Virus record (IMG/VR): IMGVR_UViG_2724679238_000012
Span: 1-27,285 of that record
DNA length: 27,285 nt
From: a virus
Lineage: Duplodnaviria; Heunggongvirae; Uroviricota; Caudoviricetes
Strand: one strand, 5' to 3'
The first letter of the stretch is position 1, and every line of letters begins with the position of its first letter. This document shows positions 6,645-8,802 of the stretch, piece after piece. A program made the position numbers and the translations under genes. Below the pieces are notes generated by a model. That model saw nothing but the letters and a program-made list of their open reading frames with translations. It was not told the DNA's origin and ran no database searches.

Positions 6645-6661
6645 ATTGCTCTAATAATTCC
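6645..6661 (+). promoter_or_regulatory. C1 operator (ATTGCTCTAATAATTCC)
   Basis: 13-14/17 match to ATTGCTCTAATAAATTT immediately after stop of the 5942..6643 gene. Confidence 0.6.
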
Positions 6662-6670
6662 ATATTTTTA

Positions 6671-6699
6671 AAACGTGATGTACACTCATCACGTTTTTT
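6671..6699. terminator. Bidirectional rho-independent terminator (stem aaacgtgatg/catcacgttt, loop tacact, A-run before and T-run after)
   Basis: Perfect 10-bp inverted repeat seen in sequence, flanked by tttttaaaa and tttttt; lies between two inverted C1 operators. Confidence 0.6.
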
Positions 6700-6710
6700 A
6701 TTAGAGCAAT
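6694..6710 (-). promoter_or_regulatory. C1 operator, inverted orientation (reverse complement ATTGCTCTAATAAAAAA)
   Basis: 15/17 match; forms an inverted pair with the operator at 6645..6661. Confidence 0.6.
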
Positions 6711-6944
6711 CTACAAGGTGCGCTATGTGGCCATTCCGACGGAAATATCACTACTGGCTGATCGCCTTTGTTACGCCGACCGGCGGTATCAGGCATGTCA
6801 TCACCAGGTATCGCAACAAGAGACTCACCTTAGCCAGAATTTTACAGGCTGCCATAGGTGAGGGACTGGATACAAATTGCGTAGTCCTTCCTCCTTCATA
6901 CTTAGGAAAAATGACCGAAGCACAAGCTAATACGGAACTTTGAA

Positions 6945-8207
6945 ATGAGCACTTCAGCACAAAACCAATCAATCGAAAATGTATGTATCCCTGATGTCCT
7001 GAATGCCGGTATCCCGGCCATTATCCAGAACATCCGGGCCGCGCAACGCCGCGTTAGTTGTGATGACCTCACAGCACGTTTTTTTGATAATGCGGTTCAG
7101 TCAGCGGAGATGCTTCATGCACAGCTTATTGATGTTTATAACGCAGAAGCTGATAGCCATAACTCCCTGGTAGATGCAGCTGAAAATATGCAGTTGGATC
7201 TCGGTCTGAAGGGTAAAGAAATTGAAGAGCTTCAGCTGGAAATTGAACATTTGAAACGCCAGCAACAGGACGCGATCGACGATGCGACGCATGACGCCAA
7301 CCAGCGTGCTGATAATGCCGAACGTATAAGCATTGAGCTGGAAACAAAACTCAATGAAATGACTGCGATGGTTGAACTGCGGAACTCACAGATTTCAACG
7401 CTAAAATCTCAATATAAAGAGATCATGAAACTTGATCCTTTTAACCTTGAGAAACGCTATAACAAAGCTAAAAGCGAGCGACAGGAACTGCGTAAGCAGG
7501 TCGCCGACCTTAACCAACAGCTCAAAAAAACTATTAAAGATGCAAGCGAGGCGCGCGTGGCATTTGCTAATAAAAAAGCAGAGGTTACCGCGCTGGTTAA
7601 TGAGAATGCCAAATTTGCGACGCTCAAGAAGGAAATGTATGGCATTACTGAGCGCCGTTTCCCTGCAAGCAAACTTCATCCGACGTTAGGGCAAATCTCC
7701 TTCTTCCCGCGCCTCCTGGCTTATGGGATCTCATCGCCTAAAGAGTTCAATAACGAGCGTCCTTATATCGTTTCTAAGCTGGACTTTGCTTATCAGTTCT
7801 GCTGCGACATGGGCTATGCCATTGATATCCGAATCAACGAATGGTTGATGCCAAACTTCCAGCCGTTGGCAATTTTCCGCGAGTTCCAGCCGGAAGGTTG
7901 GGTAGAGTTCTTCCATGAATTGATCTGTAAAGAGATGGAAAGCCGTCGCCCGGAATTGGTCCGTCGAGTTGAGTGGGAGCAAGAGGTTATGTTGGCAGAT
8001 GCAGAGCTGCCGTTCGAACCGGAATTCATTGATGATCTGGCAACTAAAGGGCTGCATACCCTGTTTGATGTGGTTACCCGCCGTCATGAGCAGTTGGTTG
8101 TCGAATTGGGTTTAGAGGAAACTGCGGCAAGAAGACTTCTCGATGTTTGCTATGCACGTAGCGATGCATGGGAAAAAGAGAACGGCGGCACTATTTACGT
8201 TCGCTGA
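6945..8207 (+). CDS. Hypothetical protein: central coiled-coil (about aa 80-230) plus uncharacterised C-terminal domain
   Basis: 420-aa ORF preceded by C1 operator pair and a ~230-nt leader; heptad-like E/K/Q-rich segment; terminator immediately downstream. Confidence 0.6.
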   Translation: MSTSAQNQSIENVCIPDVLNAGIPAIIQNIRAAQRRVSCDDLTARFFDNAVQSAEMLHAQLIDVYNAEADSHNSLVDAAENMQLDLGLKGKEIEELQLEIEHLKRQQQDAIDDATHDANQRADNAERISIELETKLNEMTAMVELRNSQISTLKSQYKEIMKLDPFNLEKRYNKAKSERQELRKQVADLNQQLKKTIKDASEARVAFANKKAEVTALVNENAKFATLKKEMYGITERRFPASKLHPTLGQISFFPRLLAYGISSPKEFNNERPYIVSKLDFAYQFCCDMGYAIDIRINEWLMPNFQPLAIFREFQPEGWVEFFHELICKEMESRRPELVRRVEWEQEVMLADAELPFEPEFIDDLATKGLHTLFDVVTRRHEQLVVELGLEETAARRLLDVCYARSDAWEKENGGTIYVR

Positions 8208-8226
8208 TAGTTACAGTGTCACTTTT

Positions 8227-8262
8227 AATGCTGGTGGAGTGCTCCCACCAGCATTTTTTTCG
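8227..8262 (+). terminator. Rho-independent terminator (aatgctggtgg / ccaccagcatt + T7)
   Basis: 11-bp stem with 6-nt loop followed by ttttttt, seen directly; contains a Chi octamer. Confidence 0.7.
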
Positions 8263-8279
8263 TCCAATGAGGAGGGCAT

Positions 8280-8786
8280 TTGAGTATTTTCAATAAACAC
8301 GCACACCAGGAACGTCCGTACATCGTCATAGTAGATATTGATGGGACGATATCAGAGGCAACGGAAGACAGGCTGCATTTACTTCCACCACCTGGCAAAG
8401 GTGCATTAACAGAGCACTGGAACGAGTTTAACCTTGCCTGTGACACTGATGCTCCCATCACTCCAGTTATTGATATGGTGCGCCAGTTGTCCGGCATTTA
8501 CACCCTCTGGTTTGTAACCGGGCGCTGTGAGATAGCCAGGGATAAAACACGAGCTTGGTTGCGTAAGCACGTAACAAATGGGGCGGAGCCTTTGCTATCT
8601 ATGCGTCCTGCCACCGATGACAGAAATGACGGTCCAGCAAAGATTGATCTCCTGAAGAAAATTGGTCTAAGTAAAATTGCGTTCGCGCTGGAAGATAAGA
8701 TTGAAGTGGCGCGTGTTTTCAGGAGTCACGGCGTACTTACGTTAATGGTCAGGGAGTATGAAAACGCGCTTCTCCATCAACAATAA
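8280..8786 (+). CDS. HAD-superfamily phosphatase-like protein (motif I DIDGT)
   Basis: 168-aa ORF with TTG start 5 nt after GAGGAGG; IVIVDIDGTIS matches HAD motif I (hhhhDxDGT). Confidence 0.6.
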   Translation: MSIFNKHAHQERPYIVIVDIDGTISEATEDRLHLLPPPGKGALTEHWNEFNLACDTDAPITPVIDMVRQLSGIYTLWFVTGRCEIARDKTRAWLRKHVTNGAEPLLSMRPATDDRNDGPAKIDLLKKIGLSKIAFALEDKIEVARVFRSHGVLTLMVREYENALLHQQ

Positions 8787-8802
8787 TTGCTCTAATAAAT
8801 CT
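8786..8802 (+). promoter_or_regulatory. C1 operator (ATTGCTCTAATAAATCT, 16/17)
   Basis: Starts at the last base of the stop codon of the HAD-like gene; followed by TTGATT. Confidence 0.7.

Follow-up and report, generated by a model that had tools for sequence, protein, structure and literature searches.

A C1-controlled pmgR-pmgS unit and an optional pap cassette in a P1-like phage-plasmid, with revised labels proposed for PmgS and Pap

Identity of the locus

The stretch of DNA analyzed here, referred to below as the window, comprises 27,285 nucleotides from a virus of the Caudoviricetes (IMG/VR record IMGVR_UViG_2724679238_000012, positions 1 to 27,285), and the subject of this report is a segment of about 2.25 kb around positions 6645–8802. 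Comparison with the P1 record AF234172 (NC_005856) and with the P7 record identified this segment, which belongs to a P1-like phage-plasmid, as an annotated locus in which an early transcription unit, pmgR-pmgS, precedes an optional pap cassette. Taken as a whole, the interpretation that we favor with moderate confidence is that pmgR and pmgS form a C1-controlled unit, that PmgS is made by translational coupling and would work with PmgR as an accessory protein binding DNA or a partner through a double helix-hairpin-helix, (HhH)2, domain, and that Pap would be a 3'-phosphatase. What remains new is the assignment of the (HhH)2 domain, the linkage of PmgR with PmgS across distant lineages, and the methyltransferase-rich, early-operon context of the PmgS family. 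We also list as new the apparent compensatory changes that keep the hairpin between operators Op86a and Op86b, and the classification of Pap, by its motifs, as a kinase-less cassette of the PNKP-type 3'-phosphatase kind that is missing from some relatives.

Over the entire span, the window showed 97–99% DNA identity to 19 P1-type phages (P1, P7, RCS47, SJ46, JL22 and others). The P1 record lists, in order, the end of pmgQ, OpmgRa (formerly Op86a), the predicted sigma-70 promoter PpmgR, the inverted OpmgRb (Op86b), pmgR, pmgS, pap, and OpmgT (Op88), where the promoters of the following operon are also placed; this locus is 98% identical to the window over the whole 2.25 kb. The P7 counterpart, which reads Op(sht), shtA, shtB, pap and Op(hea), is 97% identical over the same length. 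Operators, hairpin, three open reading frames (ORFs) and terminator are found at equal positions in P1, P7 and the window, and the sequences differ by a few percent only. Because both records carry the same elements at the same positions, our finding is a rediscovery, and the locus adds little as such: its operators, genes and terminator are already in the P1 reference annotation, and the riboregulatory leader proposed in a preliminary description of this DNA is a misread essential gene. The useful remainder is a correction of labels, both for PmgS (“head morphogenesis”, “sheath contraction”, “scaffold”) and for Pap, which is neither an acid phosphatase nor a kinase. P1 being a standard tool of genetics, and pmgS being present in every P1-like phage-plasmid, the role of PmgS and the way in which pmgR blocks head completion are small, concrete and testable questions.

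pmgR occupies the supposed leader

The preliminary description had placed an untranslated leader of about 230 nt, with an extra level of RNA-based control, ahead of the gene for a 420-residue protein. The interval in question (6711–6944) holds the 72-codon gene pmgR (P7 shtA; 6725–6943, + strand), which is annotated in P1, has its own Shine-Dalgarno (SD) sequence (AAGGTG, 6715–6720) and matches PHROG 3177 (E 4e-47). Relative to the Salmonella P1-like sequence L005, the proportions of synonymous (pS) and non-synonymous (pN) differences were 0.89 and 0.13, respectively (pN/pS 0.15), and 42 of the 67 differences fell at third codon positions; relative to the more distant L003, pN/pS was 0.41. These values mark pmgR as a protein-coding gene under purifying selection. 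The two features on which the leader had been based are both present, namely an anti-SD-like pyrimidine tract (ccttcctcctt, 6886–6896) and an inverted repeat (ctcacct/aggtgag, 6824–6830/6856–6862), and it is their regulatory role that is not supported. The tract encodes V-L-P-P-S of PmgR and reads GTCCTCCCGCCTGCT in L005 and GTCCTGGCGTTCAGC in L003. The repeat, 7 bp in length, folds no better than shuffled sequences (z -1.8) and is lost in both relatives. Neither feature is conserved at the nucleotide level in L003 and L005, where their positions change freely at synonymous and non-synonymous sites alike, and an Rfam search of positions 6500–9100 returned no match.

Genetic data for P1 point in the same direction as the coding signal. 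An in-frame deletion of pmgR is lethal, yielding tails and incomplete heads and no infectious particles, and it is rescued by pmgR supplied in trans (PMC9024508); P1 therefore needs PmgR to make complete particles. In a separate screen using CRISPR interference (CRISPRi), knock-down of P1 pmgR was scored as non-essential with a plating efficiency of 0.94, and the authors count pmgR among five essential genes that the screen missed (PMC10695390). Very little PmgR may be sufficient. In a survey of 77 P1-like phage-plasmids, pmgR and pmgS were among the 21 genes that were full-length in all of them (PMC9603915).

PmgS carries a predicted (HhH)2 domain

The gene pmgS (P7 shtB; 6945–8207, +) encodes 420 amino acids. 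Its product aligned over the full length with PHROG 1660 (E 4.6e-194, residues 1–420 on profile positions 1–403 of 405), and it is 98% identical to a cluster of 2600 sequences. The preliminary description had stated that homology to a known structural or replication protein, together with a leader without effect, would speak against it; on the first point, PmgS is 98% identical to a named P1 protein, the “morphogenetic” label of which is putative. The ATG of pmgS lies 1 nt after the TGA stop codon of pmgR and is not preceded by a good SD sequence. This tight stop-start junction and the lack of an SD sequence suggest that pmgS is probably translationally coupled to pmgR.

The long central coiled coil noted previously in the 420-residue protein was borne out by AlphaFold, which placed two very long helices (residues 40–160 and 168–232) in the region of residues ~40–232 (7062–7640, +) with predicted local distance difference test (pLDDT) values of 70–90. 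When PmgS was compared with Pfam, NCBIfam, PDB and PADLOC, only low-score coiled-coil matches were obtained; those to PADLOC LmuB, NCBIfam SMC and Pfam TPR/LPP were dropped on this ground. The coiled coil is followed by a central alpha/beta domain (residues ~238–349; 7656–7991, +), the best-conserved part of the protein among P1-like sequences, which was modeled with pLDDT >90 from an alignment of 37 sequences and for which neither PDB nor BFVD gave a match covering these residues. No polar residue is invariant in alignments of the wider PmgS family, which argues against an enzyme.

The C-terminal domain had been called unassignable. The last ~60 residues (~350–412; 7992–8180, +) can now be assigned, from the family profile, Pfam and structure prediction, to the (HhH)2 type seen in the Rad51 N-terminal domain, in the C-terminal domain of the RNA polymerase alpha subunit (alpha-CTD) and in the NusA acidic repeats (AR), with five helices that form two helix-hairpin-helix units. 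To define the family, a profile of 11 P1-type sequences was run exhaustively against 1.84 billion representatives (50% identity) and retrieved 83 representative proteins, including some 40 full-length relatives at 16–28% identity. The distant members come from this search, as further homolog searches gave almost only P1-type fragments. Most distant relatives share the C-terminal helix-hairpin-helix signature L..aG..tl.dv......L...KGIGekTA. Among 37 C-terminal halves from the family, 18 matched Pfam HHH_5 and 11 matched RNA_pol_A_CTD, and the family profile matched the human RAD51 N-terminal domain (E 2.6e-7) and alpha-CTD (E 1e-5). A first full-length model built on 11 close sequences reached a pLDDT of 65.9, with residues 254–335 below 50, and it was replaced by a model of residues 228–420 built on 37 diverse sequences (pLDDT 91.6; predicted template modeling score, pTM, 0.85). 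Where most distant members read K-G-I/L/M-G, the window protein reads E-L-G-L-E-E.

PmgS thus shares its (HhH)2, or SAM-like, five-helix domain type with Rad51/RadA, RNA polymerase alpha and NusA, from which it differs in being a coiled-coil protein that carries the domain at its C-terminal end and lacks ATPase, polymerase or KH/S1 parts. A likeness of another kind is that to lambda Ea22 and similar early-left coiled-coil proteins, which resemble PmgS in early expression, in dispensability for lytic growth and in having a long central coiled coil between small globular domains. The likeness extends, for the PmgS homologs of lambdoid-type prophages, to the location among accessory genes between recombination and integration functions. 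In contrast to these shared traits, no sequence relationship between Ea22 and PmgS was found, and where the Ead_Ea22 Pfam domain is present in these loci, it belongs to another gene. Escherichia coli YfdS, a neighbor of YfdQ in CPS-53, was considered as a PmgS relative and ruled out as a DUF551 protein.

Gene context of the PmgS family

The loci of distant homologs, which were found with two sub-family alignments, place PmgS in early accessory regions and not in structural modules. In Photobacterium and Vibrio prophages, the gene order is repressor, YfdP, YfdQ (DUF2303), PmgS-like protein, DNA methyltransferase and integrase; in Vibrio phage douglas the PmgS-like gene is followed by a methyltransferase; and in Aeromonas phiARM81mr the order is exonuclease VIII, RecT, integrase, a small ORF, PmgS-like protein, an ORF, N6-methyltransferase and exonuclease. 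On other contigs, PmgS-like genes lie near C5-methyltransferases, a VRR-NUC-like protein, a 3'-5' exonuclease and a Tad2-like domain protein. Overall, a DNA methyltransferase (MT-A70, N6, Dam-like D12 or C5) was found 0–3 genes away from the PmgS homolog in L005, L007, L008, L009, L011, L014, L016, L017, L020, L021, L022 and L025.

The genes for PmgR and PmgS are adjacent or overlapping in the P1-like loci and also in D6, L024, L025, L026 and L028, and the PmgS proteins of the distant loci are only ~20–25% identical. In D6 and these four contigs, the ORF directly upstream of the PmgS homolog encodes a PmgR-like product of ~70 residues with a conserved C-terminal G-K-M-T-E-K-Q motif. The D6 pair follows homologs of darB and ulx.

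Two side observations were made on these neighborhoods. In three Vibrio or Photobacterium contexts, the PmgS homolog comes directly after the YfdP-YfdQ (DUF2303) pair. On L024, a 56-kb viral contig, a 195-aa protein with a domain resembling the Thoeris anti-defense protein Tad2 (PF11195, E 2e-10) is encoded at 3762–4346, two genes upstream of the PmgR-PmgS pair.

C1 operators, promoter and hairpin

Operators were sought with the asymmetric 17-bp C1 consensus pattern ATTGCTCTAATAAATTT, counting mismatches and taking the expectation from shuffled sequences; nine operator-like 17-mers were found in the window as compared to 0.2 expected. Three of them concern this locus, and their identities, like that of the promoter, rest on the GenBank annotation of P1 and P7. 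Op86a (OpmgRa; 6645–6661, +) and Op86b (OpmgRb; 6694–6710, -), each with three mismatches to ATTGCTCTAATAAATTT and inverted relative to one another, coincide with annotated P1/P7 operators, which the P1 record describes with the phrase “controls expression of pmgR and pmgS”. The two operator arms covary, having changed together in L013 and L015 (TTTGTTCTAATAA / TTATTAGAACAAA). Lying behind C1 operators, the genes should be off in the lysogen and turned on upon induction, and the preliminary description had suggested the same behavior for the 420-residue protein; the operators and the P1 annotation agree with it. The third operator, Op88 (OpmgT; 8786–8802, +), has a single mismatch to ATTGCTCTAATAAATTT and had been taken to close the region. 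The operator-like site is present, but it belongs to the next transcription unit and does not bracket pmgR-pmgS: the P1 annotation puts the promoters P1pmgT and P2pmgT over it, and in relatives without pap (L005, L014) an operator of the Op88 type comes directly after pmgS.

The promoter predicted in the P1 record, PpmgR (+), has its -35 element (TTGCTC, 6646–6651) overlapped by Op86a and its -10 element (TAAAAC) at 6669–6674. The inverted operator pair encloses a perfect 11-bp hairpin with four G-C pairs, a 6-nt loop and a T6 run (6670–6680/6687–6697, +; dG -13.4 kcal/mol, z -6.3), which a scan for consensus terminators did not list. We aligned this hairpin from nine sources, which together gave seven distinct sequences; besides the window, P1 and P7, they comprised four P1-like plasmids from Salmonella or Cronobacter and two contigs of more distant relationship. 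In the seven distinct P1-like sequences, 96% of the cells were paired and 4 of the 11 pairs showed changes on both sides, whereas in controls with the partner slid by 1–3 columns the pairing was only 37–70%. The alignment thereby indicates that the hairpin is kept by compensatory changes in the relatives. It had previously been described as a perfect bidirectional terminator; the perfect stem was confirmed, and bidirectionality holds for its form only, the U-run being good on the + strand alone. Since all neighboring genes lie on the + strand and none converges, the most fitting reading of the hairpin is a terminator for the upstream pmgN-ppp-pmgQ operon, and positions 6670–6697 are probably an intrinsic terminator nested in the promoter-operator region of PpmgR. 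With the annotated -10 at the foot of the stem, transcripts from the predicted PpmgR would start inside or beyond the hairpin and escape it.

It was also observed that the loop (6681–6686), together with the aligned loops of L003, L005 and L013–L015, always resembles a -10 element (TACACT, TATCAT or TATTAT). L003 alone offers a reasonable -35 for the loop hexamer, with a TTGATT located 17 nt upstream. The true -10 of PpmgR may be the hairpin loop rather than the annotated TAAAAC.

The strong terminator reported after the 420-residue ORF was confirmed at 8227–8255 (+), where an 11-bp stem with six G-C pairs is followed by T7 (dG -18.1, z -3.6); it would be the intrinsic terminator ending the pmgR-pmgS unit. 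It is retained in L013 and L015, both of which also carry pap, with alterations in the loop and inner stem.

Pap resembles the phosphatase domain of PNKP proteins

As stated in the preliminary description, the terminator is followed by a separately initiated HAD-like protein with a DIDGT motif. The gene, pap (8280–8786, +), encodes 168 aa from a TTG start at 8280 behind the SD sequence GAGGAGGG (8269–8276), and its stop codon (8784–8786) overlaps Op88 by 1 nt. Pap matched Pfam PF25109 HAD_PNKP (E 3e-11; 44.1 bits compared to a cut-off of 27.6) and PHROG 415, and a profile of four homologs matched Pnkp1 (4xrp, E 4.8e-5) and the phosphatase domain of T4 polynucleotide kinase (5uj0, E 8.5e-5) in PDB. 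HAD motifs I–IV are invariant in the four homologs (D19-I-D21-G-T23, T80-G-R82, R115/K121 and E138-D139). Only the phosphatase part of kinase-phosphatase profiles aligned to Pap (PHROG 505, positions 156–292 of 295; 1ltq, residues 183–292), and therefore Pap contains no kinase. By these alignments, Pap is a stand-alone PNKP-type HAD phosphatase domain without a kinase domain. It shares the DxDGT, hhhTGR, R/D/K and ED motifs with the phosphatase domains of T4 Pnk and bacterial Pnkp1 (matching 4xrp, 5uj0 and 1ltq), and differs from these proteins in lacking the P-loop kinase domain and in having no ligase partner in the locus.

Two names in use for Pap were rejected. Some records call it a bifunctional polynucleotide kinase-phosphatase; its 168 aa hold no N-terminal P-loop 5'-kinase domain. 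The legacy P1 name, acid phosphatase, would imply a class B enzyme, and the match to PF03767 (E 0.092, 12.7 bits) fell below the cut-off of 27.

The gene and the terminator preceding it are present in L013 and L015 and both absent from L005 and L014, and in L003 another gene lies between pmgS and pap. Since some relatives lack pap and one has it apart from pmgS, the gene is an optional cassette and not a fixed partner of PmgS.

Proposed mechanism and function of PmgS

In the scheme that we propose, the hairpin between the operators would stop transcripts arriving from the upstream operon, and the predicted PpmgR would fire inside or just past it to give transcripts without the full stem. In the lysogen, C1 on both flanking operators would keep the pmgR-pmgS unit off, and inactivation of C1 would lead to its early transcription. 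PmgR would be translated from its own SD sequence and PmgS made by coupling, and most transcripts would end at the 8227–8255 terminator, while transcription of pap, which has its own strong SD sequence, would depend on read-through or on an unmapped promoter. PmgS is pictured as a non-enzymatic protein, probably oligomeric through its long coiled coil, whose central domain is conserved and whose (HhH)2 module at the C-terminus would bind DNA or a partner protein. Together with PmgR it would most likely work on phage DNA, either ahead of or in the course of head filling or to protect or process that DNA, and it would not be a building block of the virion. Pap would be a 3'-phosphatase for nucleic-acid ends.

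Several points weigh against this scheme. The -10 element of the predicted PpmgR is poor. The G-h-G hairpin of the second helix-hairpin-helix unit is degenerate in P1-type PmgS, which on its own gets no Pfam HhH match, and proteins, not DNA, are a frequent target of domains with this fold (NusA AR, alpha-CTD, SAM-like). The phenotype of the pmgR deletion fits a structural role in head completion as well as one in DNA filling. The PmgS homologs of Vibrio, Photobacterium and Aeromonas prophages have no PmgR-like neighbor, which means that the partnership does not hold everywhere. Finally, within 8208–8279, pap follows a strong terminator at a distance of 25 nt, and no site resembling a promoter was seen between the two.

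Genetic evidence from P1 bears directly on the role of PmgS. The genes deleted in frame included pmgS, pap, pmgQ and ppp, and none of the 24 non-lethal mutants in this collection was impaired in plaque formation or altered in anti-restriction (PMC9024508); CRISPRi gave plating efficiencies of 1.2 for pmgS and 0.77 for pap (PMC10695390). Plaque formation requires neither gene. A DNA- or partner-binding accessory role for PmgS, tied to PmgR in the P1/D6 lineage, appears more likely from the domain and context evidence than the roles implied by its labels. At a low level of confidence, we would go further and suggest either that PmgR and PmgS are a two-gene module, unrecognized until now and conserved widely among large temperate phages and phage-plasmids, whose coiled-coil, DNA-binding (HhH)2 protein helps a small essential factor to prepare, protect or deliver replicated phage DNA for head filling, or that the PmgS family is a new class of DNA-directed counter-defense proteins travelling with orphan methyltransferases.

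The best-surviving alternative to the accessory role alongside PmgR is that PmgS functions independently of PmgR, as a DNA-directed counter-defense or DNA-protection factor in accessory sets beside orphan DNA methyltransferases. The methyltransferase neighbors recur in many independent contexts, and the Tad2-like domain neighbor in L024, the position of the D6 pair after darB and ulx, the early expression, and the universal conservation of a gene that is nevertheless dispensable in the laboratory would all fit. However, the P1 pmgS deletion left anti-restriction unchanged in the assays used, co-location in early accessory regions may be coincidence, and no similarity of PmgS to any known anti-defense protein was found; we consider this explanation unlikely.

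Less probable still is the legacy annotation, according to which PmgS has a morphogenetic function as a head scaffold, an assembly factor or a sheath protein, the last being reflected in the P7 name ShtB. Database entries carry the labels “putative morphogenetic function”, “PmgS-like head morphogenesis”, “sheath contraction” and “putative prohead scaffolding protein”, long coiled coils are typical of scaffolds, PmgS is universally kept in P1-like elements, and its gene is tightly linked to pmgR, the loss of which blocks head completion. The PHROG 1660 name, however, only repeats the P1 label, and the normal plating after deletion or knock-down of pmgS, the lack of “pmgS” in the main text and tables of the virion-proteome paper, where PmgS is not named among virion proteins, and the presence of an (HhH)2 domain all speak against such a function. 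Furthermore, pmgS lies behind a C1-controlled early promoter, with no late promoter annotated there in P1, and its homologs are found in early-left operons of lambdoid-type prophages, by methyltransferases and recombination genes and far from structural modules. Since genetics, proteomics and gene context contradict them, the morphogenetic, sheath and scaffold labels are unsupported.

We give similarly little credence to the idea that PmgS is a host-takeover factor whose alpha-CTD/NusA-AR-like domain targets RNA polymerase, NusA, a recombinase or some other host protein and not DNA; the protein-binding habit of this fold would allow it, but most family members keep the canonical K-G-I-G-x-x-x-A hairpin that binds the DNA backbone. 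The model of the preliminary description, in which a structured leader with an anti-SD tract exerts RNA-level control over a coiled-coil “sensor” paired with a HAD enzyme for abortive infection or anti-defense, is largely refuted and highly improbable: the tract and repeat exist, a coiled coil with a small enzyme is a common layout and one distant PmgS homolog does lie near a Tad2-like domain gene, but the “leader” is a selected and essential coding gene, pap is no constant companion of pmgS, the deletions had no phenotype in plaque or anti-restriction tests, and PADLOC gave only LmuB coiled-coil segments at 16–17 bits for PmgS and nothing for Pap, PmgR, PmgQ or Ppp.

Flanking genes and minor observations

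Upstream of Op86a, pmgQ (P7 hdmD; 5942–6643, +) is the last gene of the C1-controlled pmgN-ppp-pmgQ operon according to the P1/P7 annotation, and it matches PHROG 1962, named “glycosyltransferase” (E 2.5e-128).

Just downstream of the Op88 promoter region, a 28-codon hydrophobic ORF (MNTAFKIIMAAIYFWLFSITFGGIVAHG; 8885–8971, +) with a good SD sequence (AGGAG) was observed. It is identical in P1 (L001:5286–5372), where it is unannotated, and its product could be a small membrane peptide expressed on induction.

Between Op88 and phd/doc (15246–15846), the window carries a complete type I restriction-modification locus on the - strand (9051–15068), made up of hsdR (9051–12212), hsdS (12274–13509) and hsdM (13506–15068). 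P1 has pmgT through humD in its place, this being a known variable region of P1-like phage-plasmids. The P1 record itself mentions that the DNA past Op88 is 96–98% identical to what lies downstream of the hsd loci of EcoDXXI and R124. The pap-hsd-phd arrangement was found with at least 80% query coverage in 489 plasmid records, the best of which was an Escherichia albertii plasmid with 99.8% identity.

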